Shown in pieces: positions 884 to 17,653 of a stretch of 32,641 nucleotides of DNA. This DNA comes from Candidatus Altimarinota bacterium. Lineage in GTDB: Bacteria; Patescibacteriota; Gracilibacteria; UBA4473. Location: the NCBI GenBank assembly GCA_020630245.1, contig JAHDBZ010000002.1, forward strand, positions 42,442 to 75,082, given 5' to 3'. Numbering within the stretch: position 1 is the first letter of the stretch; each line of letters begins with the position of its first letter. The position numbers and the translations under genes are program-made. Below the pieces are notes generated by a model. That model ran no database searches, had not been told where the DNA came from, and saw only the letters and a list, made by a program, of their open reading frames with translations.

Positions 884-952
884 TAGCATAATTTGCTAAT
901 TTTTGAATGGCGGATTGTTGAGTTTTGTAGTGGGGTTCTTAGACTGGCGGTG

Positions 953-2080
953 ATGGATTATGAACAGCGTTCGGTAGACATAAGAACCAAGTCAGGCGGG
1001 CAGATTTACACCGGCCTAAAAGCAGAACTTAGCACCCAAGAAGATTTAGCGACTTATTATAGCCCGGGGATTGCAGGGCCTTGTCGAGTGATTGCGACAG
1101 ATCCACAGCGCTCAAAAGAGCTCACGCAACGACGCAATACGGTAGCGGTGATCTCTGATGGATCTGCGGTTCTAGGGCTTGGGAATATCGGTCCAACCGC
1201 AGCCTTGCCTGTAATGGAAGGCAAATGCATGCTGCTCAAACATTTTGCAGATGTAGATGGTGTGCCGATCGTGCTTGATACTCAAGATACGGATGAAATT
1301 ATTGAAACGATTACCCGTCTGGCGCCTAGTTTTGGTGGGATTAACCTAGAAGATATTGCAGCCCCTCGTTGTTTTGAGATCGAAGCGGCGCTGTCGGAGC
1401 GTTTAGATATACCGGTCTTTCATGATGATCAGCATGGTACTGCAATTGTCGTGCTGGCAGCGCTAGAAAACGCTCTAAAAGTAGTGGGCAAAGATAAAAC
1501 AAAGATAAAAGTTGTGATCGTGGGAGCCGGAGCAGCGGGGATCGCGATTGCGCAGCTCTTGTCTGACTGGGGAGTGGTTAATTTAACATTGGTTGACTCC
1601 AAAGGAGTCGTCAGCTGTGATCGTGCGGATCTGCACCAGAGCAAGCTCAATTTTTGTTCGGTTAAGACGGGGGATCTCGAGTCGGCGCTGATCGGATCAG
1701 ACGTCTTTGTCGGCGTTTCTAAGCCTGAGCTGCTTAATACGGAAATGATACAGGCGATGGCAGAGAAAGCGATTATTTTTGCACTCTCAAATCCAAATCC
1801 AGAGATTCGTCCGGAAACCGCACTGGCAGCTGGAGCAGCCGTGGTGGCTACGGGGCGTTCAGACTATCCAAATCAGATTAATAATGTACTTGTTTTTCCG
1901 GGTATTTTTCGAGGACTGTTGGATGCGGGGGCGACCACTGTAAATACTCAGATAAAATTGGCCGCAGCGGCCGCATTAGCAGGTTTGGTAACCAACCCTA
2001 CGACAGATAAAATTGTCCCGAGTCCGCTTCAGGCAGGGGTTAGCGATGTCATTGCGACGGCGGTTGCCCAAAATGTCTAG
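953..2080 (+). CDS. NAD(P)-dependent malic enzyme (short, about 375 aa type)
   Basis: Malic-enzyme hallmarks are present: LATYYSPGIA, AVISDGSAVLGLGNIGP.AALPVMEGKCMLLK, FGGINLEDIAAPRCFEIE, PVFHDDQHGTAIV, and the Rossmann motif VIVGAGAAGIAIA. The first ATG in frame is at 953; the ORF-track start at 893 is TTG. Confidence 0.9.
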   Translation: MDYEQRSVDIRTKSGGQIYTGLKAELSTQEDLATYYSPGIAGPCRVIATDPQRSKELTQRRNTVAVISDGSAVLGLGNIGPTAALPVMEGKCMLLKHFADVDGVPIVLDTQDTDEIIETITRLAPSFGGINLEDIAAPRCFEIEAALSERLDIPVFHDDQHGTAIVVLAALENALKVVGKDKTKIKVVIVGAGAAGIAIAQLLSDWGVVNLTLVDSKGVVSCDRADLHQSKLNFCSVKTGDLESALIGSDVFVGVSKPELLNTEMIQAMAEKAIIFALSNPNPEIRPETALAAGAAVVATGRSDYPNQINNVLVFPGIFRGLLDAGATTVNTQIKLAAAAALAGLVTNPTTDKIVPSPLQAGVSDVIATAVAQNV

Positions 2081-2128
2081 GGCTTAAAGTTTGAATTTTT
2101 TATTAAACTCGATAGTTTTACTCGGAAA

Positions 2129-3460
2129 ATGCCACATTATAAAAGAAACCTTCGTTTTATTCTCTTTGTGATACTACCGCTGCTGGGATTCCTCCTGGGC
2201 TGGACGCTCAGTCAGAAGAATTCTGTTCGCAATCAGGTAGATGTTGCTGTAGAAGCCACTAATGAAAAGCCGAAAGACACGCCACTGCGACTCTTTCGAA
2301 AAACAGATCCAAAGGACGTAGATTTGAGTGTGTTTTGGGAAACCTGGAATACGATGGAAGAGCACTATCTGCACACAGATGATTTATTGACTAAGGATCA
2401 GGTCTACGGAGCTACGAAGGGATTAGTGGAGTCACTGGATGATCCTTACACCGTCTTCATGTCTCCAGAGGATACGGCCAAGTTTGAAGCATCGATGACG
2501 GGAGAGTTTGAAGGCATCGGAGCTGAAATCGGGATGCGAGATGAAAATATTGTGATCGTAACACCACTCAAAGGTTCTCCAGCCGAAATTGCTGGTCTGC
2601 GACCGGAGGATATTGTCTTCGAGGTGGATGGAGAGTCAGTGTATGGTTGGTCGATCGAAGAAGCTGTGACTGAGATTCGAGGCCCGAAAGGAGAACCAGT
2701 CACCCTTACCATTGTGAGAGAAGGTGAGCGCAAGCCTCTAGATATTACGATTGTGCGTGATGAGATTGCCTACGAAACCCTAGACTGGGAAATGAAAGAC
2801 GATGTGGCGGTCCTCTCTTTTTACCAATTTGGTGAAAAAATTGAGACGGAATTTCAGGAAGCGTTAGAGGCAGTCCTGCTCGAATCTCCAGAAGGAGTAA
2901 TTATTGATCTTCGTAATAATGGTGGCGGATTATTGGATGCCGCTATTTCTATTATCGGAGAATTCATCAGTGACGAAGTCGTGGTTAAAACCCGCGGACG
3001 CAAATTTGGTGATTCCGGAGATCTACGAAGTCAAAAGAATGGGGCCCTACAGGAATTACCACTCATTGTGCTGGTGAATGAAGGGTCAGCCAGTGCTTCT
3101 GAAATCTTTGCTGGAGCGGTGCAGGACTATAACCGCGGCCTGCTTTTAGGTGCCAAAACATTTGGAAAAGGTTCTGTACAGAACTGGGTCCAGCTTGATG
3201 ATGGCTCTAGTCTAAAGGTGACCATTGCCGAATGGCTCACGCCAAAGGGACGCTCTATTCACGAAGTGGGCATTACCCCTGACGAGGAAATCGAGGTGAC
3301 AATTGAAGATTTTGAAGCTGACTTTGATCCAGTGCTGTCTCGGGCCCTTGAATTGATTGGTTCAGATGAAATGGCGCAGATTATGTCAGAGGCAGCGGTT
3401 GAGGCAGATGAAAATATTGAAGAAAACGTCACATCTGATAATACTAATACGTCAGAGTAA
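2129..3460 (+). CDS. Carboxy-terminal processing protease (peptidase S41, PDZ domain), membrane-anchored
   Basis: An N-terminal TM segment is followed by FEGIGAEIG, the PDZ segment PLKGSPAEIAGLRPEDIV..VDGESV, DLRNNGGG, the catalytic Ser context NEGSASASEIFAGA, and GAKTFGKGSVQ (catalytic Lys). Confidence 0.9.
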   Translation: MPHYKRNLRFILFVILPLLGFLLGWTLSQKNSVRNQVDVAVEATNEKPKDTPLRLFRKTDPKDVDLSVFWETWNTMEEHYLHTDDLLTKDQVYGATKGLVESLDDPYTVFMSPEDTAKFEASMTGEFEGIGAEIGMRDENIVIVTPLKGSPAEIAGLRPEDIVFEVDGESVYGWSIEEAVTEIRGPKGEPVTLTIVREGERKPLDITIVRDEIAYETLDWEMKDDVAVLSFYQFGEKIETEFQEALEAVLLESPEGVIIDLRNNGGGLLDAAISIIGEFISDEVVVKTRGRKFGDSGDLRSQKNGALQELPLIVLVNEGSASASEIFAGAVQDYNRGLLLGAKTFGKGSVQNWVQLDDGSSLKVTIAEWLTPKGRSIHEVGITPDEEIEVTIEDFEADFDPVLSRALELIGSDEMAQIMSEAAVEADENIEENVTSDNTNTSE

Positions 3461-3463
3461 ATA

Positions 3464-4822
3464 ATGATGAAGAAATTTTTATCACTTTCGGTATGTGCGT
3501 TCGCCCTAGTGCTTGGAACGTCTGCTAGTGCTTTTGCAGTAGAAACACCAAAACCCTTACAGCTACTGTTTGGTGATCAGGTTTATACTCTGAACTTTGC
3601 TACCAATCCAGAACTGCTGGGTCGAACTTCGTCACACACGCTAGAGCTAGGAGATACAAGACTGCCCCTAGACCTTGATCAGGGATTGCCACCAGTGGTA
3701 GAAAATGTTCGTATTCAAACTGAATTTGACAACGTTATTAATCGAGCAGCGCTTGAAGCGTTTTTTGTGCGCAATACACCGCTCCTTAATGATGAAACTC
3801 CACCGGTATACATCGGGTATGATGATTCTGGGAATTTTTCAGTAACTGGATTTCCGAAATCTGGGTATTACGTAGATTTTGATACGCTGGAAATTTTGGT
3901 AAATCAAGCCATCTCTTATGGTTATGAGCACGTGAGAGTGCCAGCTCAAGATGGTTATTCTCCAGTAATTCCTGATCAAGAATTGATAGATCGAGGTATT
4001 ACAGATGTTTTAGCTGTCGGTAAATCAAATTTTCGAGGTTCTTCGGCCGCTAGACGTCAAAATATTCGCGTTGCTTCTGATAAATATAACGGACTTATCC
4101 TCGCACCAGGAGAGCAATTTTCTTTTAATGGTATCCTTAAATCAGTACGACCCGAGGATGGTTATGTAGAGGAGTTGGTGATCAAGGGGAATGACACGGA
4201 AAAAGAATACGGTGGAGGGATCTGTCAGGTTTCGACGACAGTTTACCGAGCCGCTTTCAATGGAGGGTTGCAACTAGATGAACGTTTTAATCATTCATAC
4301 GCTGTGCCGTACTATCAACCGCACGGTTTTGATGCCACGATCTATCTTGGAGGCAAAGATTTTAAATTTACGAATGATACTCCCGCAGATTTGATTATTC
4401 AGACCCTGGTTTCTGGAGATGACATGTATTTTGTTTTTTATGGGACCGATGATGGACGAAAGGTAGTTTCAGAAGGGCCCTACATTTCAAATCATCGTCC
4501 AGAGCCAGCCCCTATCATTGAGGAAACAACGGTCTTGCCACCAGGAGTGCAGGAATACGTTTCCTATGGACAGGATGGGTTTGATACGGTGTGGAATCGA
4601 ACGGTTTATAAACCAGGAGAGGCGCCGCTCGAAGAAACTTTCGCCTCTTACTACAAGGCCTGGCCAGCTCGAATTGCACGAGGAGCCGGTGGGCGCTATC
4701 AAGATATCCCGGTTGAGGTCGTAGAAGAAGTAGAGCCGGTAGCTGTAACACCAGAACCGGCGCCAGCTCCGGAGTTAGATCCAGACTTTTTCTCGCTCGA
4801 AAATTCAACATTTGCCGATTAG
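3464..4822 (+). CDS. VanW family protein (secreted)
   Basis: Signal peptide MMKKFLSLSVCAFALVLGTSASAFA. The VanW core reads APGEQFSFN...GYVEELVI.G......YGGGICQVSTTVYRAAFNGGL...ER.NHSY.V.YY. The C-terminal tail is Pro-rich. Confidence 0.85.
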   Translation: MMKKFLSLSVCAFALVLGTSASAFAVETPKPLQLLFGDQVYTLNFATNPELLGRTSSHTLELGDTRLPLDLDQGLPPVVENVRIQTEFDNVINRAALEAFFVRNTPLLNDETPPVYIGYDDSGNFSVTGFPKSGYYVDFDTLEILVNQAISYGYEHVRVPAQDGYSPVIPDQELIDRGITDVLAVGKSNFRGSSAARRQNIRVASDKYNGLILAPGEQFSFNGILKSVRPEDGYVEELVIKGNDTEKEYGGGICQVSTTVYRAAFNGGLQLDERFNHSYAVPYYQPHGFDATIYLGGKDFKFTNDTPADLIIQTLVSGDDMYFVFYGTDDGRKVVSEGPYISNHRPEPAPIIEETTVLPPGVQEYVSYGQDGFDTVWNRTVYKPGEAPLEETFASYYKAWPARIARGAGGRYQDIPVEVVEEVEPVAVTPEPAPAPELDPDFFSLENSTFAD

Positions 4823-4855
4823 TGTATTGACACTGGTATAGAGCGGGGAAGTCAA

Positions 4856-4888
4856 GGCCAAAAGAATTGTCCTTTGGGGCCGCTTTTT
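4856..4888 (+). terminator. Possible intrinsic terminator after the VanW gene
   Basis: GGCCAAAAG (4856-4864) pairs imperfectly with CCTTTGGGGCC (4871-4881) and is followed by GCTTTTT. The stem has an internal loop, so it is only moderately convincing. Confidence 0.4.
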
Positions 4889-4904
4889 GGCACAATTTAA
4901 AGGT

Positions 4905-6161
4905 ATGAAAATAAAAATAAATTTTTCCCTCTTGTTAATAGTGTTATGGGGAAGCTTTGTGGGGGGAGAAGCTAAAGCCTTGGATGTTATAGGTGACGCG
5001 GCCAAAGTGGTTCGTACCCAGCAAGTGGTGCCTTTGAATGTTGCAGTGAAAGAAGGGCCTTCAGCCGACAGTTTTTTTGTTGAAATATTTGCACCACGTA
5101 ATGTAGCTGGCGGCGGGCAGGCTCGTTTTTCTTGGTTTGATCAAAATCAAATTCCGGTTGGTTCTTATGCCGCTTCAGTGGGAGAAGATGATTTTTTGGG
5201 ATTATTAACAATTCGGATTCCCAAGCTTGAATTTGTTGGAGACTACCGATTACAGGCTGATATTTTTTCAGAGAATGGCTGGTTATTAGCGACGGGGAAT
5301 ACAGCAGTTCAGATTAGTTCGGGAGATGAGCGTATGCAGCTGTCGGCGCCGATACTGATCCGTAAGCCAGATGGTTTTAGTCTGAGTTTTGACGTGCGCA
5401 ACTATAATCTGCGTCAGACTGTAGTGCCTCGTCTGCAGGGTTTTTTCATTAAAAATGGAGAACGGCAATACGTTTTACAACGAAAATTGGAGCCAGTTTC
5501 GCTAGGAGCTCGACAGCGTTCGACGGTAGAGTTCGATGTCGAAGACGATTTTCCGCCAGGAGAATATTATTTAGAGGCTTGGGTCGAGTCGCCAACGGGG
5601 AAATATTTGTCCGGAGTTCTAGAGTCTTATCTCCAGTTGCCCGGTAATTATGCTCGTTTGGCCGATCTAGAAGTTAAGTTTGATGGTCAGACAGCCGACC
5701 GAGCACAGATTCTTTTTGAAGGATTTGCGCTTGTGCCTCAGGGGCGAGATTTACAAGTGTTTGTCAAAAGTGAGCACGATGGCGCGTCGCTCGCAGAATC
5801 ATCGATGTCGGTCCCAGTGGTAGATGGTTACTTTGCTGAGCGATTGGACGTAAAATTTCCAGAAACGGTGAATTTCTTCTCTGGTACTATGGAGTTGTTT
5901 TCGGGATCGGATTTTGACCTAGGAGATAGTCTGTTGACACAAGCTTTTCAATCTCCGGTAGTGGAGATTGGCGGAGGAGAAATTGTTCCGCAGCCAGTTT
6001 TGGTTCCGTCAACTACCAAAGATGGCGCACCGCTTAATTTTGCCCCTCCAATTCCTTGGTGGGAAAAATGGTGGGTGTGGTTGTGCTTGGCTTTGTTCGT
6101 GTGTGTGGGGATGGTCCTCCTGATAACGCTTACTCGCCGTAAATCTAAACGTGTTTTTTAA
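4905..6161 (+). CDS. Hypothetical surface protein: signal peptide, repeated Ig/CARDB-like beta segments, C-terminal TM anchor plus basic tail
   Basis: Long ORF with the ATG at 4905 (MKIKINFSLLLIVLWGSFVGGEA). C-terminus: WWEKWWVWLCLALFVCVGMVLLITLTRRKSKRVF. No catalytic motif recognised. First gene of a tightly packed five-gene block. Confidence 0.7.
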   Translation: MKIKINFSLLLIVLWGSFVGGEAKALDVIGDAAKVVRTQQVVPLNVAVKEGPSADSFFVEIFAPRNVAGGGQARFSWFDQNQIPVGSYAASVGEDDFLGLLTIRIPKLEFVGDYRLQADIFSENGWLLATGNTAVQISSGDERMQLSAPILIRKPDGFSLSFDVRNYNLRQTVVPRLQGFFIKNGERQYVLQRKLEPVSLGARQRSTVEFDVEDDFPPGEYYLEAWVESPTGKYLSGVLESYLQLPGNYARLADLEVKFDGQTADRAQILFEGFALVPQGRDLQVFVKSEHDGASLAESSMSVPVVDGYFAERLDVKFPETVNFFSGTMELFSGSDFDLGDSLLTQAFQSPVVEIGGGEIVPQPVLVPSTTKDGAPLNFAPPIPWWEKWWVWLCLALFVCVGMVLLITLTRRKSKRVF

Positions 6162-6169
6162 GTTTTTTT

Positions 6170-7399
6170 ATGAATAAATTTTTATGTTTCGGTCTTGCAA
6201 TATTGTTCCTATCTCCGACGCTGACGTCGGCGCAGTCAGATGTGAATATTCGGTCGCAATGTTTTGACCGCCTCAAAGAACAGGCGTTGCAAATAGAGGA
6301 CTTTCGACTGGCCAGAGCCGAACTCGAAGCGATTGATTACGCTACACTCGACAATCGATTGTCTCGTTATTACCAAGGTCATTCCTCTTTTGGAATTGAT
6401 GTTGACCAACCTATATTCGACCTGAGAGTCTTTAGTTTTGGTCGTCAGACTGGTTATGTGCACCCGCCCTATTCTCCGTTTCCGGTAGGGGCGAAGTCGG
6501 AGCAATGGAAAATGGCGGCTAAAGAATTTATCTTAGCTGAAGAATTTATTCGCAACCCAGAAGGAGAACGACAGTTTTTGGGTTGTGGTTTTTTTCGGAT
6601 TGGGGCGCGGGATCTAAAGTCTGTAACGGCGGACACCTATCTGTATGATGGTCCTGTTTCGTCTGTTATGTCGACTCAAGGTGATCACAAGTTCTGGTAC
6701 AACTTCAATACTTCGTTTAATTATGAGGATGCGCCACAGGCAAACTGGTATCGATTGTTTGTGTATCCAAAAGCTACACAAAATAGCTACTTTAGTCGTT
6801 ACGAAGTCCTCGACAGTTTTCCTGGGAATCAATTGGATGATTTATCAATCCTGACAGAAGCTGGTATTACGGCAAGACGAGCTGAGGGGGGCGATTTTAC
6901 AGAGCTTGATCCAGTAGAAACTGGCAGTGCTTTTGCGCTCAATGCCTACTATCAGGCTATAGCAGATCGTTATCCAAATTTTGCAGATCGTTTAGCACTG
7001 CGTGGGGTCTTAGAATACAAAAATCTACAGAAGATCTTGGCAAGTCCCAATAGTTCTGCCGTCAATTACGTTTGGGATACCTTGTTAGACACAAAGGACA
7101 TTACTCGTTATGCAGCGGCTCAGATTGCGGGCAAGGATATAGAGTCCGATCCCATTTTTGATCAAGTATTGAATGATCCGAAGGCTGTGAATCAATCAAT
7201 TTTGGATCTTGCTTTGGTACCTGCCTCAGACTCTGGGGTGGTCGATGTGTCGGCCGTCACGGTTACAGATCAAGTTCGAGAATCTAAGCCATTAGCTCTA
7301 CAGGATAACCGTGGTACTTTTGTGATGGTTGTAGTATTATTACTACTGTTATTCGTTCTTCTTGCTTCTTTGCTGTTCTTTGCGCGCAGACATAAATAA
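6170..7399 (+). CDS. Hypothetical surface protein: signal peptide and C-terminal TM anchor plus basic tail
   Basis: N-terminus MNKFLCFGLAILFLSPTLTSAQS. C-terminus FVMVVVLLLLLFVLLASLLFFARRHK. It starts 8 nt after the upstream gene. No known motif recognised. Confidence 0.7.
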   Translation: MNKFLCFGLAILFLSPTLTSAQSDVNIRSQCFDRLKEQALQIEDFRLARAELEAIDYATLDNRLSRYYQGHSSFGIDVDQPIFDLRVFSFGRQTGYVHPPYSPFPVGAKSEQWKMAAKEFILAEEFIRNPEGERQFLGCGFFRIGARDLKSVTADTYLYDGPVSSVMSTQGDHKFWYNFNTSFNYEDAPQANWYRLFVYPKATQNSYFSRYEVLDSFPGNQLDDLSILTEAGITARRAEGGDFTELDPVETGSAFALNAYYQAIADRYPNFADRLALRGVLEYKNLQKILASPNSSAVNYVWDTLLDTKDITRYAAAQIAGKDIESDPIFDQVLNDPKAVNQSILDLALVPASDSGVVDVSAVTVTDQVRESKPLALQDNRGTFVMVVVLLLLLFVLLASLLFFARRHK

Positions 7400-7404
7400 T
7401 TTCC

Positions 7405-8751
7405 ATGAAAAATTTTCTATCGTTATTGGCTCTCAGTTTATTTATAGGTCTGTCACTGTTTTCCTCGGCTGAGGCATTGAATTTAATTTCTGAAGAATCT
7501 GAATTTGAAGAAGACATCCTCAATCAGATCGAATTGCTGCGTTCCGACCCATTCCTAAACGTTGACCATGTAAGTGCTCATGAGCAGGACGATGTTTATG
7601 AAGCGGTGGCCGTGAGTACGACCACTCCACCAGATCTAAGCCAACAGACATCAAATGATAGTTCAATTGTCTTAGGAGCCAGAACAGGGGCCCCCTTTAC
7701 CGATCAGTGTGATGGACGGAGTCACTATGGAGCACTGAGTCATCAGCGCGGCAATTCGTTTTGTTACGGTCCAGCACCCAAAGGTTACAAGGCAACGATC
7801 GATCCGTATCTTTGTCAAAACATGGATCAGTACTTTCGTACCTGTCCGCCATTTGGGAATGGAGTGACGGGAAAAAAAGAAGACTGTGGTATGACTTCGG
7901 GTGTGACTTGGGGACCACCAGGTAAACCATCAACTACGGCCTGGGGTACATGGACTAGTTGGTGGAAAGGACTTTCTGCTTTCTGTATGAAAGAGGGATA
8001 TTGGTCTGACTCAGATGCTTCACGTCTGCCAGACGTAAATTCAAAAGCAACGATCAAATTTACGATTGCTGCTTCAGACGGGGAAAAGACTTACCGCTCG
8101 GAACAAAAGAAAAATGATAGTCAGGAAATTGTGGTTGAAGGTGATTTTGATACTAGTGGGGGTACCGCCGCGCGAACGCTCACCAGTCCTTCGTTTAATT
8201 CACCTTTTATCTACCTTACCAATCAGGTGGGCGCTGTAGCCGTTCAGCTAAACTCTCTCTGGAATCAATATCAAAGTCAGTCGCCAGCGTTCAATCTCAA
8301 AAACGGTTGGCTAGTGGACAATGATTCGCCGTCACCACTCTTCTACGAGTTAGGGCTCACACAGGTAGAGCTCAGTCGTGCGGGAATGAATTTCCAGTCA
8401 AAAGAGGCCCTAGAGAAATTTTTAACCACCGGGGATTTCTTTGATCGTTTAGGATTCACAGCCCTAGAAAAAAATAATTCACTAGGGTATTTGCTGCCAA
8501 GGCTACCAGAATCTCCACACTATTATCTAACGATTTTGGATTCAGGTTCTGTGTCTCAGCTTTCATCGATGTCAGTTGATCCAAGGCCTGAGACATTGGT
8601 TCGTCGTTACTTTGCGGTGTATCCAACTCAGGTTCCAGTCCACGCTAGCGGTGAATTGGATTATCCAGGATTAGTTTCTGATGTCGGTTTTACGGTCCGT
8701 GATTATGGTGAGATTATTGTAACCCCTGATATGTTTGTTATTTGGAAATGA
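7405..8751 (+). CDS. Hypothetical secreted Cys/Trp-rich protein
   Basis: Signal peptide MKNFLSLLALSLFIGLSLFSSAEA. There is a Cys- and Trp-rich segment (CDGRSHYG...CYGP...CQN...CPPFG...CGMTSGVTWGPPGKPSTTAWGTWTSWWKG). It starts 5 nt after the upstream gene, and its TGA overlaps the next ATG (ATGA at 8748-8751). Confidence 0.7.
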   Translation: MKNFLSLLALSLFIGLSLFSSAEALNLISEESEFEEDILNQIELLRSDPFLNVDHVSAHEQDDVYEAVAVSTTTPPDLSQQTSNDSSIVLGARTGAPFTDQCDGRSHYGALSHQRGNSFCYGPAPKGYKATIDPYLCQNMDQYFRTCPPFGNGVTGKKEDCGMTSGVTWGPPGKPSTTAWGTWTSWWKGLSAFCMKEGYWSDSDASRLPDVNSKATIKFTIAASDGEKTYRSEQKKNDSQEIVVEGDFDTSGGTAARTLTSPSFNSPFIYLTNQVGAVAVQLNSLWNQYQSQSPAFNLKNGWLVDNDSPSPLFYELGLTQVELSRAGMNFQSKEALEKFLTTGDFFDRLGFTALEKNNSLGYLLPRLPESPHYYLTILDSGSVSQLSSMSVDPRPETLVRRYFAVYPTQVPVHASGELDYPGLVSDVGFTVRDYGEIIVTPDMFVIWK

Positions 8752-11700
8752 AGATAAAAATTTTTCGGATTCAGTTTTTGTTGATGGCTTTGTTTATGCT
8801 CAGTTCACTGGGAATAGCACAGGCGGCCAATGAGCGTGTTGATTGTCTCGATAGTGGCAATTGTAGTGATTTGGTCTATACGCAACACCAAGGAAAGATC
8901 ACCGCTCGTTGTCACAGTTCTGCGACGGCTTCTAGCTTGCCGGTAAAGATTACCCTCAATGGTGATGTTTACACGGGAACTTTAGATTGTAGTAACAATG
9001 GTGGAAACGGTGGAGGCGGATCTAGTACGACCGGTCCGTGGACCATCGGACCCTGGGGGACTTGTACACAGGAGTGTGGCGGTGGCCAACAGTTTCGCGA
9101 CGTAACATGTGGCTACGATAGTTGTGATGGAGTGAGGCCGGCAGAATCTCAAGCCTGTAATACGCACGCCTGTGAAAACTGTAATGCCGATAGTTGGTTT
9201 GGAGATGATCCAGCCAATATCTGTGTGGGACAACAAGGAGTGCAAACCAATGAATGTGGTGATGAACGTAATGTTGATGGAACCTGGAATCCACAAGACT
9301 GGTCTCCACACCCCAGCGTGGTCTGCTCGTTTGATACTTTTTATCAGGGGACAAGTTGTGGTCAGGATCGCGAATCCAGCGGTTCTCGAGACTGTCAACC
9401 AACCTGGCAATGGCTGCGACCAGCCGATCCAGAACCATTAGTCAGTGCTAATGTTGAAAGTGATTTTAACAACCTACGTCTTACCGGAGATCTTTACTAC
9501 GCAGTCGCTGGTAAAGGTTTCTTCGATGTTAATGATGTACGAGCGGCTCGAGTAGTTCTCATCTCGGCCGGCAATGAATATGAATATGCGGTTAATCTTA
9601 GAGATATTACGTTCACAGATCGTGGTTATGATTTCCTGGTAGATCTTTCGGTTCTCCAAACGCAAACCCCCGCCGGAGCGGCTGGGCCGATTAATTTTTC
9701 TGATGGTGATTGGAGTGTTGATGTTATGTTTGAGCACAAGCATGATGGCATGGCTAACTATGCCTGGGTAAGGAATAGTGATAGTGGACAATTTGTTCTC
9801 GATAGCACCGCGCCAAGCGGTACGACGATACATCGACAAACAGCTGACAGTGATGCTCAAGAATATCCAGATACATTACTGACTAATGAGCCGGGTTTTC
9901 TTTGGGTCAACTGTGTCGACAGTGGGGCCGCTGGATGTCTTGGAGATGTGGCAGATCTAGATGCTGATTCTACGGTAGATAATTATCAGCCATTTGCTGT
10001 GAAAGGGAACTTCTGTCCAGATGGAGCGGTTTGTGATACATCAGGAACTCGTAGTTTTGAGATTTGCGATCGAGCCGATAATTGTAGTCTCGTAGATGCG
10101 GTACTCGACAACTATGATCCCATAGCGCCAAGTCCATTAGATTTTGTGATGGGACTGCAACCGGGAGGAGCTGGTTTTCTCGGAACGGTTCTCAAGGCCA
10201 GTGCTGACTATTTCCCAAATCTAGACTTTGTAGATCCTGGTGAAGTGATTGAAAGAGGAACGCCTAGTATCGTCGGATCTCGAGCCTACATCACTCCAGA
10301 TGACTACGATCAGATTTTTGATGAACATGCTTGTGGAGATCCAAGTGTGTCACCATTTGCGCACAATGAGGCGGATGGTCAGTGTGAACTCCAAAATAAA
10401 AATTACCCAGCTAGCTGTGAAACGCTGGCTAGTTGTCCAGATCCATGTCCGGCAGGATATTTTTGGGATGAAGGCCTCAACCGTTGTGAACAGGCGCCTA
10501 CTTGTACTGACACAACTTGGACACCGCTTGAAACAAGTGTCTGTAGTGGCACTGATTTCACACAGGTTAGTAACTGTGGGAATCGACGTTCTCGTACCGG
10601 ATCTAAAGACTGTTCGGCTACTAGTAACTGGCGGATTACTCAACCACCACTCTGTCCGATTGGTTGTGGCCAGTCTGCACAAACGTTAGAAGGAGCGGTG
10701 ACTTGTCCGGGTACCGATTGTGATCCGGCCGAGGAGCCAGCGGTTCCGACTCGAAGCTGTGCCGCCACAGAGGTCTGCCCACCTAGCTTCTCGGGAACCT
10801 GGGAAATTACTCAGCCAGAGGCTTGTTCCACCGCTTGTGGTCTTGGAGAGATTACTCTGTTGGGGAGTGTTCGATGTTCGACTGGCAATCCTTCTGATTG
10901 TGATCCCGCGCTCGAACCAACGGTGCCTACGCGACTCTGTAATGCGACTGCGACTTGTCCGCCGACGTTTACGGGAACCTGGAGTACAAATCCTGCACCG
11001 CAGTGTCCGACAAATTGTGGTGAGCCGGCTTCAACCAAAACCGGGAGTGTGAGTTGTTCTGATAATAATTGTGATCCGGCACAACGTCCGACAACTCCAA
11101 CTCAAACCTGTAGCGCGACGGCAACTTGTCCGCCGACATTTACAGGGACCTGGACAGCCAATCCTGCGCCAGCCTGCTCTACGGCCTGTGGCCAATCGGC
11201 TAGCACGCAGACCGGTACTGTAACTTGTTCTGACAACAACTGTGATCCATCTGCGAAACCGGCAGCTCGGACTCGAAGTTGTAGCGCGACGGCAACTTGT
11301 CCGCCGACATTTACAGGGACCTGGACAGCCAATCCTGCGCCAGCCTGCTCTACGGCCTGTGGCCAATCGGCTAGCACGCAGACCGGTACTGTAACTTGTT
11401 CTGACAACAACTGTGATCCGTCTGCGAAACCGGCAGCTCGGACTCGAAGTTGTAGTGCTACCGCATCTTGTCAGCCAGTTACAACTTGTAACCCTGTTGA
11501 TTATGACTTTGACGGTTGGTGTCGTCGAGATGCATCTAACCAAACTATTCCAATGTGTAACAACATCAACTTCATGGATTCTTTCTGTGGAGGTGATCCA
11601 AATTGTACGCTCCGAAATATGAATATGACTACTAATACTTGTGCCGTTTGTAGAGCTACCTTCGAAGTCTGTATTACGACGACTCCAAATTCAAACTCGA

Positions 11701-11981
11701 CCAATAATACGGCTTCTAATACTACGCCTACCTATGACGGAACCTGGAGTACAACGCCGGCACCACAATGCCCAACAGCTTACTGTGCTTTCTCAACCTC
11801 AGGTGCTGTCAATTGTTCTACAGAAGATTGTGATCCAGCCTTGCGTCCAGCCGTACCTCGTCGAGACTGTTTAAGTACCGCTGTGTGCCAGGAGGAACGC
11901 CAGTTTATTGAGAACTTAGAAAATAATTCTAATAACTCTGATCCATCAATTGATGATGGTAATAATTTTGATTTTCGATAA
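8748..11981 (+). CDS. Large secreted Cys-rich protein with thrombospondin type-1-like repeats (putative adhesin)
   Basis: Signal peptide MKIKIFRIQFLLMALFMLSSLGIAQA. A canonical TSR reads WTIGPWGTCTQECGGGQQFRDVTCGYDSCDGVRPAESQACNTHAC (9039-9173). Five consecutive 57-60 aa degenerate TSR-like units lie at 10629-11471, with one more at 11745-11888. The ATG at 8748 overlaps the upstream stop. Confidence 0.8.
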   Translation: MKIKIFRIQFLLMALFMLSSLGIAQAANERVDCLDSGNCSDLVYTQHQGKITARCHSSATASSLPVKITLNGDVYTGTLDCSNNGGNGGGGSSTTGPWTIGPWGTCTQECGGGQQFRDVTCGYDSCDGVRPAESQACNTHACENCNADSWFGDDPANICVGQQGVQTNECGDERNVDGTWNPQDWSPHPSVVCSFDTFYQGTSCGQDRESSGSRDCQPTWQWLRPADPEPLVSANVESDFNNLRLTGDLYYAVAGKGFFDVNDVRAARVVLISAGNEYEYAVNLRDITFTDRGYDFLVDLSVLQTQTPAGAAGPINFSDGDWSVDVMFEHKHDGMANYAWVRNSDSGQFVLDSTAPSGTTIHRQTADSDAQEYPDTLLTNEPGFLWVNCVDSGAAGCLGDVADLDADSTVDNYQPFAVKGNFCPDGAVCDTSGTRSFEICDRADNCSLVDAVLDNYDPIAPSPLDFVMGLQPGGAGFLGTVLKASADYFPNLDFVDPGEVIERGTPSIVGSRAYITPDDYDQIFDEHACGDPSVSPFAHNEADGQCELQNKNYPASCETLASCPDPCPAGYFWDEGLNRCEQAPTCTDTTWTPLETSVCSGTDFTQVSNCGNRRSRTGSKDCSATSNWRITQPPLCPIGCGQSAQTLEGAVTCPGTDCDPAEEPAVPTRSCAATEVCPPSFSGTWEITQPEACSTACGLGEITLLGSVRCSTGNPSDCDPALEPTVPTRLCNATATCPPTFTGTWSTNPAPQCPTNCGEPASTKTGSVSCSDNNCDPAQRPTTPTQTCSATATCPPTFTGTWTANPAPACSTACGQSASTQTGTVTCSDNNCDPSAKPAARTRSCSATATCPPTFTGTWTANPAPACSTACGQSASTQTGTVTCSDNNCDPSAKPAARTRSCSATASCQPVTTCNPVDYDFDGWCRRDASNQTIPMCNNINFMDSFCGGDPNCTLRNMNMTTNTCAVCRATFEVCITTTPNSNSTNNTASNTTPTYDGTWSTTPAPQCPTAYCAFSTSGAVNCSTEDCDPALRPAVPRRDCLSTAVCQEERQFIENLENNSNNSDPSIDDGNNFDFR
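11109..11450 (+). repeat. Near-perfect 171-bp x2 tandem duplication inside the TSR-repeat gene
   Basis: Copy 1 (11109-11279) and copy 2 (11280-11450) differ at a single position by eye (GATCCATCT versus GATCCGTCT). A diverged third copy precedes them at 10938-11108. Each unit is 57 codons, so the frame is preserved. Confidence 0.95.
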
Positions 11982-11988
11982 TTCATAA

Positions 11989-14304
11989 ATGTATAAAAAT
12001 CTAATTTCAGCTTTCGGTTTTCTTTTGATTCCAAGTCTTGTTTATGGAATAGGGGTTCCTACCTCAGGTATTGATTGGGAAGCCTCTATGATTTCTATTC
12101 AGAGTTTTGATGCCGCACACCCTACGCATGAAGCAAACTTTAGCTGTTTCGGTGGCGGTTTTTCGGATCTACCGATTTCTCGAAGTCTACAAGAAATGGC
12201 CTTTTCAAATACCAGTCCTGGACCGGAGAATGATTCAGGGCTGATTACAGGTTCTTCGTGTTTCCAACAAGCTGGAGAGTATCAACTACAGATCTCCTTA
12301 GTCGATAATGCGGGTAACATTGGTACCGCTGAGAGTTATTTACTCACGGTTCGACCCGCCGAGGCAGATTCTTTGCTCACCACTATTCGACCGATTGCTT
12401 ACGAAAAAGAAACAGACAATCCAGCTATTGGCACTCTAAATGGTAATACGACTGATTGTACGGCAGAAAGATTAGTAGCCAATGCCGAAGATGATTGTCA
12501 GCTACAGGTAAGTCTACGTGATGAATTTGGGAATGTTGTGGTAGTGAACCGACCACTCGGACGGATGGCAATCCCTGGAAGAGATATCAATAACCGAGAT
12601 CTCAATACCTTTGCGGATGCAGAGGGAGTATTTATCGATGGATTACGCCTCAACGACAGTCTAAACAATCCTTCCTTTCGAACTGATAATGATGGAAATT
12701 TTAATTTTACGGTGAGCGCTCTCGCACCTTCGATTGACATTATTACCTCGCCGATTGATGCGGCATTTAAATTGTCTCAGATTATTCCGCGTAATACACC
12801 GTTTGAATTTCCAATTCCAGCTATTGCTGATGATGGTTCTACTTCAGGGACTACAACGGTTACTAAATCTGCTGACCTACAGTTTGAGCCATGGGTGAAA
12901 TTATTTTTGAGTGACAACGCTCCAAGTGGAGGCAGTGCCTCGGCCCCTAATGAGCCACTTTACTTCTTGCTGGGAGATACCAAGGTGCTCTACGCTTTCG
13001 CAGGGACGATGCTGGACCACTTTTTGCCGAGCGGATTTGATGTTTTTGTGAAGGGGTTCAATCGCCCAGTAGGACTGTTTTTTGAAGACGAAGATCTGAC
13101 GTCTGGTTTTGGTGATATCGATGGAGACACCGTACCAGAAGGTTTAAGGATTTCATTGGCGGGGAATGCGACCTCGCGAAGTGAAGACTTCGAAACAATT
13201 CTGAAATCTGCTAGTGGTCTCTCCAGTGATGAAAATGTGGCCTTTGGCTCCAAAATTCGTCACAGTTATCGAGAGGGATCTTCTACCAAAACGGTGTTGT
13301 ACCCAGGTGGAAATCTAGGTTCTTCCATCGGTCCAGATCCAGCGTTCCCAGCGGTTACCCTTCCGGTAGATTCCATCCCAGGCGGAACTCCAGGAACAGC
13401 TACCGCTCTCTTAGTAGGAGCTGATATCGAAGGAAAAGTATTAGCCAATCAAGACGTCCGAGCTGTAAACGATGCTAATGCCAAATTTGTAACGGTCGGA
13501 GGTATAACAGCCGTTGATATTCGTGAAGATGTCACGAGAAATGCCGAAGTAATTACCCGTGGTTCAAATTCAGTTAACTCTCCGGGAAGTAATATCAACT
13601 TCAATATTAATTCTGGCTGGACAGGAGATGTTGCATACTTCGAGGATGCCACGGTTACCCTGACTGGAGCCTCCAGCCCAATGGTGTTTGACCAAGGACA
13701 AAAAACGATCGTAATCCGTGATGGAAATCTCTTTATTCCAGATGATCTTATCTACGGACCAGGATTTGATGATTCACTTGGGGTGATTTTGATTAACTCT
13801 ACGGTGAATAACCTCGATCTCGGGCATATATTTGTGAAAAATGACGTACAGCGCTTGGTCGGAACTTATTACGCGGAAGGTTCTATCCTCAGTACGGATG
13901 CGATTACCGATCCGCAGCATACTGACACGATTGCGAATCGAGAACTTACTAATATGGATGATCCCAATGCACCGCTGGGTCTACAGCTCTTACTTGAGGG
14001 AACGATCCTGACTCGGAACACCTTGGGAGGAGCGCTGCTTGATCCGCCATTCACACCGGAAGGGCCAACGACCGAGCAAGACGAGGCCATCAAATACGAT
14101 CTGCACTTCGTACGGCGTTACGTACCGCCACTGGATCCTGTGACGCTTGATCCGTTACCAGACAGTGCCAATAACAACTGTGTAAAACCAGATGGTGCTA
14201 CGTGTGATGTCAACAAGCATTCATTCGTCATCAGAGCTGATGGTCGGGTGCGAAATCTGACACCACCAGGGTTTGATCAGTTGAGTGGGTTCTCGGCGCA
14301 GTAG
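11989..14304 (+). CDS. Large hypothetical secreted protein (Ig-like plus probable beta-helix regions)
   Basis: Signal peptide MYKNLISAFGFLLIPSLVYG. A Big_1-like segment reads DCQLQVSLRDEFGNVVVVNRPLG. The C-terminal half has short beta-strand periodicity (TVTLTGASSPMVFDQGQKTIVIRDGNLFIPDD...VILINSTVNN). It starts 7 nt after the TSR gene. Confidence 0.75.
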   Translation: MYKNLISAFGFLLIPSLVYGIGVPTSGIDWEASMISIQSFDAAHPTHEANFSCFGGGFSDLPISRSLQEMAFSNTSPGPENDSGLITGSSCFQQAGEYQLQISLVDNAGNIGTAESYLLTVRPAEADSLLTTIRPIAYEKETDNPAIGTLNGNTTDCTAERLVANAEDDCQLQVSLRDEFGNVVVVNRPLGRMAIPGRDINNRDLNTFADAEGVFIDGLRLNDSLNNPSFRTDNDGNFNFTVSALAPSIDIITSPIDAAFKLSQIIPRNTPFEFPIPAIADDGSTSGTTTVTKSADLQFEPWVKLFLSDNAPSGGSASAPNEPLYFLLGDTKVLYAFAGTMLDHFLPSGFDVFVKGFNRPVGLFFEDEDLTSGFGDIDGDTVPEGLRISLAGNATSRSEDFETILKSASGLSSDENVAFGSKIRHSYREGSSTKTVLYPGGNLGSSIGPDPAFPAVTLPVDSIPGGTPGTATALLVGADIEGKVLANQDVRAVNDANAKFVTVGGITAVDIREDVTRNAEVITRGSNSVNSPGSNINFNINSGWTGDVAYFEDATVTLTGASSPMVFDQGQKTIVIRDGNLFIPDDLIYGPGFDDSLGVILINSTVNNLDLGHIFVKNDVQRLVGTYYAEGSILSTDAITDPQHTDTIANRELTNMDDPNAPLGLQLLLEGTILTRNTLGGALLDPPFTPEGPTTEQDEAIKYDLHFVRRYVPPLDPVTLDPLPDSANNNCVKPDGATCDVNKHSFVIRADGRVRNLTPPGFDQLSGFSAQ

Positions 14305-14353: not shown

Positions 14354-15358
14354 ATGACGTGGTTGCCTTGGCTATTGTGCGGGTTAATACTTGGTTCAGG
14401 GCTGACCTGGATGGCCGTGAAATGGTTTCCAAGATTTAAGCTGTTGGATTTTCCAGAACGCTATGGACTCCAGCGGGATCGTCTACCGTATCCAGGAGGG
14501 TTGGTTTTATTTGTGCTTAGTTTCGCACTGCTGTGCTTAGATTTAGGGTTTTGGATTTTGTGTTTGCCTTTGCTGGTTTTAGGAGTCCTCAGCTTTATCG
14601 ATGATCGCCATCAAGTATCTGCCCTCAAAAGACTTGTAGTGCAATTGTGGTTAGCTTTGTTTCTCGTACTGATGGGCGTGCAGATTGATTTCATTACCAA
14701 TCCTTTTGCAGCGACGAATTTTCCACTGGCGGATTTTTCTCCTTGGCTAGCGGGAGTCGTTACGGTGATTTGGATCGTGGCCATTCAAAACGCCATTAAT
14801 TGGTTTGATGGTTTGCCGGGGTTATCCGTTGGGGTGTCTGCTGTCGGTTTTTTGACACTTGGAATTCTGGGGCTCGTACAGCCAGAGTTATTTTTTGATC
14901 CAGCGCATCAGTCTCTGACCTTAGCTAATTTTTACCTGGCCGGACTCTGTGTTGGGGCGTGGTGGTGGTATTGGCGTGGGCGTATTATTTTGGGAGATAC
15001 AGGCTCGCAAGTTCTAGGTTTCTTACTAGCCGTCATGGCTATCTGGTCTGGCGCTAAAATTGCTACTACATTGATGGTACTCTGCCTGCCAATGCTTGAT
15101 TTTGTATGGGTGATCTTTCGACGGGTCGTATTTGATCGTAAATCGCCATTTTCGGGTGATATGTCACACATGCACCACCTGCTCGCGAAAAAGGCTCGTG
15201 GGCGCATTATTTCGCTAATTTTGACGATCTCTTCTCTCCTGATAGGGATGATTGCTATCTTTGTGACTCCGATGATGAAGCTCTGGAGTTTGTTGATCCT
15301 GGGTGGAGCGATTGTGGGGCTAAACTGGTGGTTGTTGACCGATAGTAGAGAGCGGTGA
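14354..15358 (+). CDS. Glycosyltransferase family 4, WecA/TagO-type polyprenyl-phosphate sugar-1-phosphate transferase
   Basis: Multi-TM protein with AIQNAINWFDGLPGLS, ILGDTGSQVLGFLLA and the WecA-type C-terminal motif SPFSGDMSHMHHLL (MraY would read HHHFE). Confidence 0.85.
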   Translation: MTWLPWLLCGLILGSGLTWMAVKWFPRFKLLDFPERYGLQRDRLPYPGGLVLFVLSFALLCLDLGFWILCLPLLVLGVLSFIDDRHQVSALKRLVVQLWLALFLVLMGVQIDFITNPFAATNFPLADFSPWLAGVVTVIWIVAIQNAINWFDGLPGLSVGVSAVGFLTLGILGLVQPELFFDPAHQSLTLANFYLAGLCVGAWWWYWRGRIILGDTGSQVLGFLLAVMAIWSGAKIATTLMVLCLPMLDFVWVIFRRVVFDRKSPFSGDMSHMHHLLAKKARGRIISLILTISSLLIGMIAIFVTPMMKLWSLLILGGAIVGLNWWLLTDSRER

Positions 15359-16417: not shown

Positions 16418-17653
16418 CTAGCTTTCTAGCGATCTGACTAATGTCTGAAAATGATCCCCTTTTTCCTGAAAGTTCGCGTACTGATCGTAGCTTTTAGCCG
16501 CTGGGGAAAGCAGGATGGTCGAGTGCTTGTCGTCAAAAGACGAATTGTGTACCAGGTCCATGACAGCTTCGAGATTCTTTACCTCCACGATGTGGAGCGA
16601 GGTTTCGATCTGTTTGAGTTCGTCGGCTAGTTCTGAGCTGGTCACGAAGACGAAGATATGCGGGACATTCTCTTCGAGAAATCTCACTAGAGCCGTCGGA
16701 TCATCACCGCTACTCTTTCCGCCGAGGATGAGACCGCCGATTTCTTTCTGTAGATGTGTCACCGCCGCGATAGTGGCTGACGGGTTTACGGCGATGGCGT
16801 CGTCGTAAAATTTCAAACCCTGGGCTTCGCCCACCAGTTGCAGACGATGATCGGGAAGCGGGGTCGTGCGGAGGGCTTCGGCGAGGACTTTGGTATCGTA
16901 TTTGATTTTTAATTTTTTGAGCACTACTGGGATCACACCGAGGTTCTCACGGAAATGCGTGGCGTCGAGGATTGATTCGAGCTTGTAAGTCCGTGGTCCG
17001 AGCTTGGGCGCGGCGGTAAGATTTTTGGGTGGTTTTTGAAAACGGCCAGCCGTGACTTTTGGCGCCACTAGGTGATCCCCAGGTTGCTGGTGCCACCAGA
17101 GATTAGCTTTGGCCCAGAAATACGCGTACTCGTCGCCGTGGCGATCGATGTGGTCGGGAAAGAAATTGAGGAACACCGCGGTGTGCGGTGACCGCCGGAT
17201 GAACTGTGCTTGGAAACTCGAAACCTCTACCACTAGGTAGTCGAGTTGGCCGTGCTGGAGCTTTGGCAGGGCTTCAAGCAACGGAATACCGATGTTGCCA
17301 GCGGTTTCGGCCCGTAGACCGAGCTGCTGCAGGCAGTGGGCCATGGCCATGGTAGTTGTGGTTTTGCCTTTCGACCCGGTGATAGCGATGACCTTACGAC
17401 GTTCGTCGTCAGTGAGGTTGCTAAAAAAATAATTGGCCTGACTGGTCAGTTTGTGTCGTTCGGAGACCGGGATCTGTTCCGGCGGGATTCCTGGGCTGAG
17501 CCAGATCTGATCATAGCTGTCCCAATCCCAGTCGATGAGGTGCGTCCGGGCATCATAAATCGTGATCTGCTCCGCCAGATGATGCTGTTGGAGGAAATCA
17601 TGGGTGGACTGCCCTTCGCGCCCGTAACCGTAGATCAGGATGTGGTTGGACAT
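16418..17653 (-). CDS. murD: UDP-N-acetylmuramoyl-L-alanine--glutamate ligase (MurD family; possibly MurD2-type)
   Basis: N-terminal Rossmann-like IYGYGREGQS, Mur-ligase P-loop ITGSKGKTTTTMAMAHCL, VVEVSSFQ, FLNFFPDHIDRHG, and C-terminal LLSPAAKSYDQYANFQEKGDHF. At 411 aa it is slightly short for MurD. Confidence 0.85.
   Translation of the reverse strand: MSNHILIYGYGREGQSTHDFLQQHHLAEQITIYDARTHLIDWDWDSYDQIWLSPGIPPEQIPVSERHKLTSQANYFFSNLTDDERRKVIAITGSKGKTTTTMAMAHCLQQLGLRAETAGNIGIPLLEALPKLQHGQLDYLVVEVSSFQAQFIRRSPHTAVFLNFFPDHIDRHGDEYAYFWAKANLWWHQQPGDHLVAPKVTAGRFQKPPKNLTAAPKLGPRTYKLESILDATHFRENLGVIPVVLKKLKIKYDTKVLAEALRTTPLPDHRLQLVGEAQGLKFYDDAIAVNPSATIAAVTHLQKEIGGLILGGKSSGDDPTALVRFLEENVPHIFVFVTSSELADELKQIETSLHIVEVKNLEAVMDLVHNSSFDDKHSTILLSPAAKSYDQYANFQEKGDHFQTLVRSLES

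Follow-up and report, generated by a model that had tools for sequence, protein, structure and literature searches.

A conserved pair of exported-protein genes within an operon-like block of surface-type proteins from a Candidatus Altimarinota bacterium

We analysed a stretch of 32,641 nucleotides (nt), called the window below, from Candidatus Altimarinota bacterium (GTDB lineage Patescibacteriota; Gracilibacteria; UBA4473; contig JAHDBZ010000002.1 of assembly GCA_020630245.1, positions 42,442 to 75,082 of the forward strand), and focused on a block of five plus-strand genes, G1 to G5, at positions 4905-14304 of the window. The block is real and operon-like, and it encodes exported proteins of surface type. 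As a whole it is a lineage-specific adhesin-like assembly of a kind already noted in Peribacteria, and within it G2 and G3 are a conserved pair without a characterised relative. Judged from gene order and similarity on related contigs, G2-G3 is the conserved core, and the other genes appear to be lineage-specific add-ons of adhesin type. The reading that we favour, with slightly better than even confidence, is that G2 and G3 form a membrane-anchored base that works with variable adhesin-like partners in surface display.

Candidate Phyla Radiation bacteria (CPR, or Patescibacteria) are thought to live attached to other cells. Beyond type IV pili and a few Saccharibacteria adhesins, we know of no protein that makes this contact. 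The locus gives a testable handle on the CPR surface, with its conserved pair, the unmatched fold of G2, the domain at the end of G3 and the variable adhesin-like partners. Defining the C-terminal domain of G3 as a family would annotate more than 1,000 hypothetical proteins, and learning what G2-G3 binds would tell how a CPR clade builds its surface. If the pair turned out to be an envelope enzyme system, the finding would still be useful, and more ordinary.

The five open reading frames (ORFs) are G1 (4905-6161, 418 amino acids (aa)), G2 (6170-7399, 409 aa), G3 (7405-8751, 448 aa), G4 (8748-11981, 1077 aa, with its ATG at 8748) and G5 (11989-14304, 771 aa), all on the plus strand. Our ORF calls reproduce the coordinates, the sizes and the spacers (8 nt, 5 nt, a 4-nt ATGA overlap and 7 nt) of a preliminary description of this DNA, and the block was measured to take up 28.8% of the window, where about 29% had been given. 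All three stop codons (TAA, TAG and TGA) are in use in the window. The standard code therefore holds, and the ORFs truly end where they were called. The code of Gracilibacteria, with UGA read as glycine, was ruled out; TGA ends three intact genes, and conserved genes are unbroken.

Judged from this close spacing, the five genes are probably co-transcribed as one operon, and G3 and G4 may be coupled in translation, given their ATGA overlap. A terminator scan gave no excess of terminators within the block (11 found, 11 expected). The hairpin previously described as a terminator-like structure in front of the block is present at 4856-4888 on the plus strand, between the VanW gene and G1, as an imperfect GC hairpin followed by a run of T, but its fold does not stand out from shuffled sequences (z = -0.6) and it is not among the sites of the terminator scan. 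Possibly it acts as a weak terminator for the gene upstream of it.

All calls of export and topology for the five proteins are based on hydropathy. Each product carries one N-terminal hydrophobic segment with an AxA-type site, as expected from the signal peptides described earlier for all five. A second, C-terminal hydrophobic segment is found in G1 (residues 387-412) and G2 (377-408) only, and in both it is trailed by Arg and Lys residues, in agreement with the transmembrane (TM) helix and basic tail that had been assigned to these two proteins.

The conservation of the block was then examined on related contigs, most of which are short (L001 is a near-identical public copy of the window sequence, and L004 and L006 are the same as L005). 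The same sequence is present in SRR14415275. It turned out that G3 directly follows G2 in eight independent lineages (the window, L003, L002, L005, L012, L014, L017 and L018), with gaps of at most 27 nt or an overlap. The identity to the window proteins is about 36-62%, and 36-44% in the lineages beyond L003. In L014 the pair is followed by G5, and the three genes are contiguous with gaps of 8 nt and 6 nt (38, 40 and 34% identity to G2, G3 and G5; the G5 homolog has 1192 aa). G1 and G4 are absent there, and leucine-biosynthesis genes flank the trio. The gene after G3 encodes another secreted-protein family in L002 and L005, and yet other secreted proteins in L018 and L012. For L017, positions 2081-6234 encode G2 (463 aa), G3 (355 aa) and a second G2 copy (446 aa), adjoined by a DUF4012 gene, and the next ORF is cut off after 80 residues by the end of the contig. 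Besides, a protein of 720 aa from a Logan contig (P0060) joins G2 and G3 in one reading frame. Its residues 9-436 are the G2 homolog including the TM helix, and the topology is consistent, with the TM helix of G2, a short basic loop and the signal-like TM segment of G3. P0060 is either a Rosetta-stone fusion or the result of a missed stop codon on a 2.7-kb contig.

Generally, co-occurrence of the block genes exists outside this genome, but the order of all five is seen only in close relatives with 53-63% identity, and it is obtained by reading L003 and L007 together. L003 carries S41-VanW-G1-G2-G3-G4 and ends within G4, and L007 carries G4-G5-GT4-aldolase-Mur ligase and, further on, MutS and Wzy. 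In these two contigs the flanking housekeeping genes are 60-84% identical to those of the window, versus 53-63% for the block genes, so the block evolves somewhat faster, not dramatically.

G2 consists of a signal peptide, a conserved ectodomain, a disordered linker (residues 351-382), a TM helix (382-408) and an RRHK tail. In the AlphaFold2 model, which is a confident one (predicted local distance difference test, pLDDT, 82.7; predicted template modelling score, pTM, 0.76), the ectodomain is built of N-terminal helices, an antiparallel beta-sheet (68-200) and a helical domain (210-349), and residues 382-408 are modelled as helical. A Foldseek search of this model against PDB gave no match at E<=0.001, and the best match was 3hlz (E-value 7.8e-3, probability 0.30). 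The G2 family contains 11 proteins, whose alignment (A1) shows invariant C31/C139, H98-P-P and E124-E125; D160 is another invariant polar residue. The model points to a type I membrane protein with a predicted ectodomain fold for which no solved relative was matched.

Both G1 and G2 resemble the sortase-anchored LPXTG proteins of monoderm bacteria in having an N-terminal signal peptide, a C-terminal hydrophobic helix and a positive tail. They differ in the region before the helix, which is variable and carries no LPXTG-type motif in the G2 family, while G1 has PPIPWWEKWW there. Since the G2 family shows no such motif, G1 and G2 are most simply seen as permanent type I membrane anchors.

G3 contains a signal peptide and two halves, of which the N-terminal one is variable and contains Cys and the C-terminal one is conserved. 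As judged from profile searches, it ends in a widespread domain of about 190 aa that is missing from Pfam (residues ~258-448; 8176-8748, plus strand). The consensus of this domain (alignment A6) is KPxIYLYP...GW.V...PDG...YLFYE...LGL..E...F..YWLP.L...P.PD..IRV...R.GFTVVEWGG, and its invariant polar residues in G3 are E315, E355, R400 and E436. The profile found 1482 representative proteins at E<=1e-3, and 56 of them at E<=1e-30 make up the G3 family proper. The domain is located at the C-terminus in all of the close matches (56 of 56) and in 95% of the remote ones, and a hydrophobic segment stands at the N-terminus of most of these proteins. No Pfam-A or NCBIfam model covers the domain, and no sequence relative was found in PDB.

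The remote relatives of the G3 domain (P0092-P0183) are 200-1120 aa long and have varied N-terminal parts in front of the C-terminal domain, with CarboxypepD_reg in one of them. The named remote members are all labelled “hypothetical protein”, and they include WP_143072321 of the archaeon Methanolobus profundi and a protein from a Patescibacteria metagenome-assembled genome (MAG).

G4 has a signal peptide, a Cys content of 7.1% and seven TSP1-like units with six Cys each, which were delimited with a repeat hidden Markov model. On the plus strand, the first unit covers aa 96-143 (9033-9176), five tandem units cover aa 626-913 (10623-11486), and the last one covers aa 998-1048 (11739-11891). The TSP1-like repeats noted earlier were recognised by PF19030 (TSP1_ADAMTS) at aa 98-142, with 27.4 bits against a cut-off of 23.8, and unit 1 matched the TSR of semaphorin-5A in a PDB search (E-value 0.003). 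The Cys residues follow a six-Cys framework with a period of 57 aa. As for the WxxW ladder, two Trp residues are found in unit 1 only (GPWTIGPWG), and the other units have a single one (GTW). Thus G4 is like TSP1/ADAMTS proteins and the semaphorin-5A TSR in its seven units with the framework CSxxCGxG...C...C...C, and it is unlike eukaryotic TSP1 proteins in being bacterial, in having two Trp in unit 1 only and in the absence of the eukaryotic glycosylation context.

At the DNA level, G4 contains a tandem repeat at 10937-11476 on the plus strand (171 bp, 3.2 copies, 83% matches), which encodes near-identical TSP1-like units, two of them identical. This repeat is likely a site of repeat-number variation. 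The L007 ortholog of G4 is much shorter and is split into 308 and 585 aa. Orthologs of G4 were seen in the close relatives L003 and L007 only, in a search that was not exhaustive.

The nearest published counterpart of G4 comes from Candidatus Peribacter riflensis, which has a 14-gene cluster of large Cys-rich exported proteins with 7.2 +/- 2.4% Cys, for which an attachment role was proposed and strain variation reported, and which were only weakly similar to Cys-rich repeats of Myxococcus and to pappalysin (Anantharaman et al. 2016, PMC4736985). G4 is like these proteins in its signal peptide, its length (1077 aa), its Cys content (7.1%), the variability of repeats and length, and the same broad lineage. 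It differs from them in its TSP1-type repeats, and the likeness is one to the published description, not one from sequence comparison. The features that define this class (a signal peptide, large size, 5-10% Cys and a Peregrinibacteria-type genome) are all found for G4. The G2-G3 pair is not described in that paper (PMC4736985).

The mature N-terminus of G4 (aa 25-82; 8820-8993, plus strand) contains a tentative Cys-framed module with the pattern ...L.L.C...I.L.VNG..D.L.C. In the alignment, a similar pattern of about 55 aa stands after the signal peptide of the proteins encoded behind G3 in the window, L003, L018, L005, L002, L012 and L014. Leave-one-out profiles recover it in L018 (2.5e-7), L014 (1e-4), L002 and L005. 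In pairwise shuffle tests, the G4 module reaches z scores of 4.3 with L018, 4.5 with L014 and 3.4 with L005, and the L003 ortholog reaches 3.7-6.5 with these proteins. A docking module of post-G3 proteins is to us a tentative idea only.

G5 consists of a signal peptide, a beta-sandwich or Ig-like array (aa ~30-445; 12076-13323), which starts about 10 residues past the signal peptide, and a C-terminal region (aa ~507-771; 13507-14301). The G5 family contains 17 proteins, in which the C-terminal ~265 residues are the most conserved part with many invariant positions (alignment A3). The AlphaFold2 model (pLDDT 73.6) is an all-beta chain, and in a Foldseek search against PDB its N-terminal ~415 residues matched InvE (5n40, probability 0.99), intimin (6tqd, 1.00) and invasin (1cwv, 0.95; 1f00, 0.95). 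The Ig arrays of SdrD and of the integrin leg were matched by the G5 model as well, and weak matches to Big_1, Invasin_D3, Big_13 and PKD occur among the family members. G5 is therefore similar to the invasin/intimin/InvE inverse autotransporters in its tandem Big_1-like Ig array, at the fold level only (7-12% identity). It differs from these adhesins in having no N-terminal LysM or beta-barrel anchor (no Pfam match) and no C-type lectin tip, with a C-terminal domain of its own of about 265 aa. As for the probable beta-helix of the preliminary description, short regular strands are modelled at residues 536-674 (pLDDT 76-92), but no confident beta-helix match was obtained in PDB or BFVD; one phage “pectin lyase fold” protein was matched with a probability of 0.09. 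A beta-helix in the C-terminal region of the modelled G5 is no more than plausible.

The solitary G5 homologs of L015 (8001-10097) and L016 (8001-10076) lie about 1 kb 3' of a FemAB gene, with a Mur ligase gene at a distance of about 3.5 kb, and in the window the distance between G5 and a Mur ligase gene is about 2 kb. The G5 family may have a loose synteny with cell-wall genes.

G1 is composed of a signal peptide, an ectodomain of about 360 aa, an aromatic juxtamembrane segment (WWEKWWVW), a TM helix (387-412) and an RRKSKR tail. Its ectodomain has no Pfam, NCBIfam or PDB sequence match, and no significant internal repeats were found. The earlier assignment of Ig/CARDB-like segments holds for the Ig-like modules, which are in G5, while CARDB in G1 goes back to a sub-threshold match of Wzt_C (E-value 0.005) and a G.Y.L motif. 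Besides the near-identical public copy L001, one G1 ortholog was found, in L003 (56% identity); the large protein collection was not searched exhaustively. G1 thus appears to be a lineage-specific membrane-anchored extra. A scan of JGI metagenomes for G1 matched only the C-terminal anchor motif, WWEKWWVW with the TM helix, in an unrelated ORF. This ORF of 286 aa (L013, 9734-10591) has WWEKWWVW, a TM helix and a basic tail in common with the C-terminus of G1 (6081-6161), so the combination may be a recurrent anchor motif. In L009, a Laminin_G_3 protein of 2618 aa (942-8798) lies 5' of a G5 homolog with a 348-aa gene in between, and its residues 180-360 are weakly similar to residues 162-334 of G1 (i-Evalue 1.5e-4 in a search of 323 sequences).

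From these results, we infer that G2 and G3 associate physically, that G4 and G5 are displayed with their help, and that the function is adhesion. G2 and G3 would form a base that is anchored in the cytoplasmic membrane and sits on its outer face, and the gene or genes after G3 would supply the variable outward-facing part. In the window, G4 would be a stalk rich in Cys, built of seven TSP1-like repeats that could vary in copy number through the tandem DNA repeat, and G5 would be an invasin/intimin-like chain of Ig domains ending in the conserved C-terminal domain. The display would most likely serve binding to another cell or polymer. The G2-G3-G5 trio of L014, at 34-40% identity, supports the link of G5 to the pair. 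Cultivated Saccharibacteria need multiple protein adhesins to grow epibiotically (Wang et al. 2023, PMC10633639), and this need fits a binding role of the block. These adhesins represent the functional class proposed here, although they come from another Patescibacteria class and the likeness is one of inferred function.

Several observations weigh against a base with variable adhesin-like partners. The protein family encoded after G3 differs between lineages, and the leave-one-out profiles miss the N-terminal module in the window G4 and in L012. Four genomes (L008, L009, L015 and L016) carry G5 relatives that have no G2-G3 within 8-10 kb, which makes G5 independent of the pair. The invariant polar residues of G2 (H98, E124, E125 and D160) and of G3 (E315, E355, R400 and E436) could equally mark an enzyme, and neither G2 nor G3 has any functional annotation.

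A more far-reaching version of this reading seems possible to us, though well short of an even chance. It says that G2-G3 is a modular surface-display platform of Peregrinibacteria/Gracilibacteria-type CPR, which would recognise swappable cargo through the Cys-framed N-terminal module. Tentatively, the cargo would then be the TSP1-rich G4 in the window and an Ig protein of the G5 type in L014, and L002, L005 and L018 would have cargo from other families. If true, the platform would be a mode of anchoring and swapping adhesins that is distinct from sortase, S-layer or pilus display.

The main rival, which we consider rather unlikely, is that G2 and G3 are factors of envelope biogenesis or remodelling, acting on peptidoglycan, wall glycan or exported proteins, and that the adhesin-like genes merely share their operon. 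Invariant acidic, His and Arg residues in both families would suit such a role, yet neither protein shows similarity to an enzyme family by sequence, nor does G2 by fold. The neighbours point in the same direction, with VanW, an S41 protease, GT4 and a Mur ligase in the window, FtsW and glycosyltransferases in L002, Lnt in L005 and DUF4012 in L017; however, envelope genes are dense in small genomes, so this neighbourhood is weak evidence. The G3 domain is spread over about 1,480 clusters, whose proteins are mostly exported and in one case archaeal, and this spread suggests a general envelope function. Against this, the gene after G3 encodes a secreted protein, or a second G2 copy (L017), in every lineage examined.

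The five proteins were earlier proposed to be a dedicated apparatus with two anchored bases and three distal parts, and a strict form of this would make them obligate parts of one attachment apparatus, in which G1 and G2 would be the bases and G3, G4 and G5 the distal components. It accounts well for five co-oriented genes with gaps of at most 8 nt or overlaps, whose order is kept at 53-63% identity when L003 and L007 are taken together. The proposal does not hold at larger distances, where only G2-G3, and once G2-G3-G5, persists. In the searches run, G1 has one ortholog (L003) and G4 occurs only in L003 and L007; L014 has G2-G3-G5 but neither G1 nor G4; L002, L005, L012, L017 and L018 combine the pair with other partners; and G5 relatives stand alone in four genomes. 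An obligate five-part apparatus is improbable on this evidence.

We also give little credence to the view that unrelated secreted proteins lie side by side, with G2-G3 as the only true unit and nothing joining G4 or G5 to it. The variable third gene, the frequent solitary G5 relatives and the failure of the N-terminal module test for G4 are what this view would predict. The recurrence of the G2-G3-G5 trio in L014, with gaps of 8 nt and 6 nt at 34-40% identity, argues against chance as far as G5 is concerned, and the ATGA overlap of G3 and G4, which suggests translational coupling, does so for G4.

That the block is a divergent form of a known system, be it a pilus (sortase-dependent or type IV), an S-layer, a polymorphic toxin or a receptor-binding cluster derived from a phage, is largely refuted and very improbable: the C-terminal TM helix with a basic tail is like the end of sortase substrates, and Ig arrays are also known in pilins and phage fibres, but the G2 TM helix has no conserved LPXTG-like motif before it, no class III (prepilin) leader is present, no SLH, toxin, Rhs, PHROG or PADLOC match was obtained, viral contigs contain no relatives of G2 or G5, and the flanks are housekeeping genes.

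For the five proteins of the window, Pfam and NCBIfam gave no match at threshold except TSP1 in G4, and no SLH or other S-layer anchoring or lattice domain and no toxin or Rhs family was found in these two databases. None of the five matched PHROGs or PADLOC at E<=0.01. PDB sequence searches with the five proteins, together with profile searches from alignments A1, A2, A3 and A6, returned only the TSR and weak Ig hints. Prepilin features (a short basic leader, a G|F/M site and Glu at +5) were not seen, and the five N-termini have the classical n-h-c build with AxA-type sites. A viral origin was rejected, as G2 and G5 have no relatives in IMG/VR viral contigs. It turned out that two earlier statements agree with these searches: no catalytic, transport or secretion-machinery family was matched (Pfam, NCBIfam, PHROGs, PADLOC and PDB), and the block stands outside the described families, with no pilus, S-layer, toxin, phage or defence family among the matches.

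On the 5' side, the block is preceded by genes of a malic enzyme, an S41 protease with a PDZ domain and a VanW protein. On the 3' side it is followed by a transferase of the MraY/WecA family (GT4; 14354-15358), which agrees with the wecA-like neighbour reported before, and then by an aldolase, a Mur ligase, MutS, a Wzy_C protein and DUF4012. The window was searched for tRNA genes and Rfam families, and none was found. As for the lineages of the relatives, some G5 relatives are labelled as hypothetical proteins of “Candidatus Gracilibacteria bacterium”, and among the G2 relatives one belongs to a MAG labelled “Candidatus Peribacteria” and another to “Patescibacteria group bacterium UBA2135”. 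These labels point to a CPR host from the Peregrinibacteria/Gracilibacteria clade, one with the standard genetic code.

Two further genes of the window deserve mention. The minus-strand gene at 19072-20430 encodes a protein of 452 aa with no match in the local Pfam copy, and its L007 ortholog (66% identity) contains MurL_N and MurL_epimerase_C. Two short ORFs set this gene apart from the Mur ligase gene (16418-17653). The plus-strand ORF at 31018-32641, which leaves the window at its end, begins with a signal peptide (MTKTKKLLVLGLSVLFLFGGSVFGQ), after which come a coiled-coil-like region rich in K and E and, next, a region that contains Cys. It resembles another exported protein, and its surroundings are A-rich and low in GC (38%).

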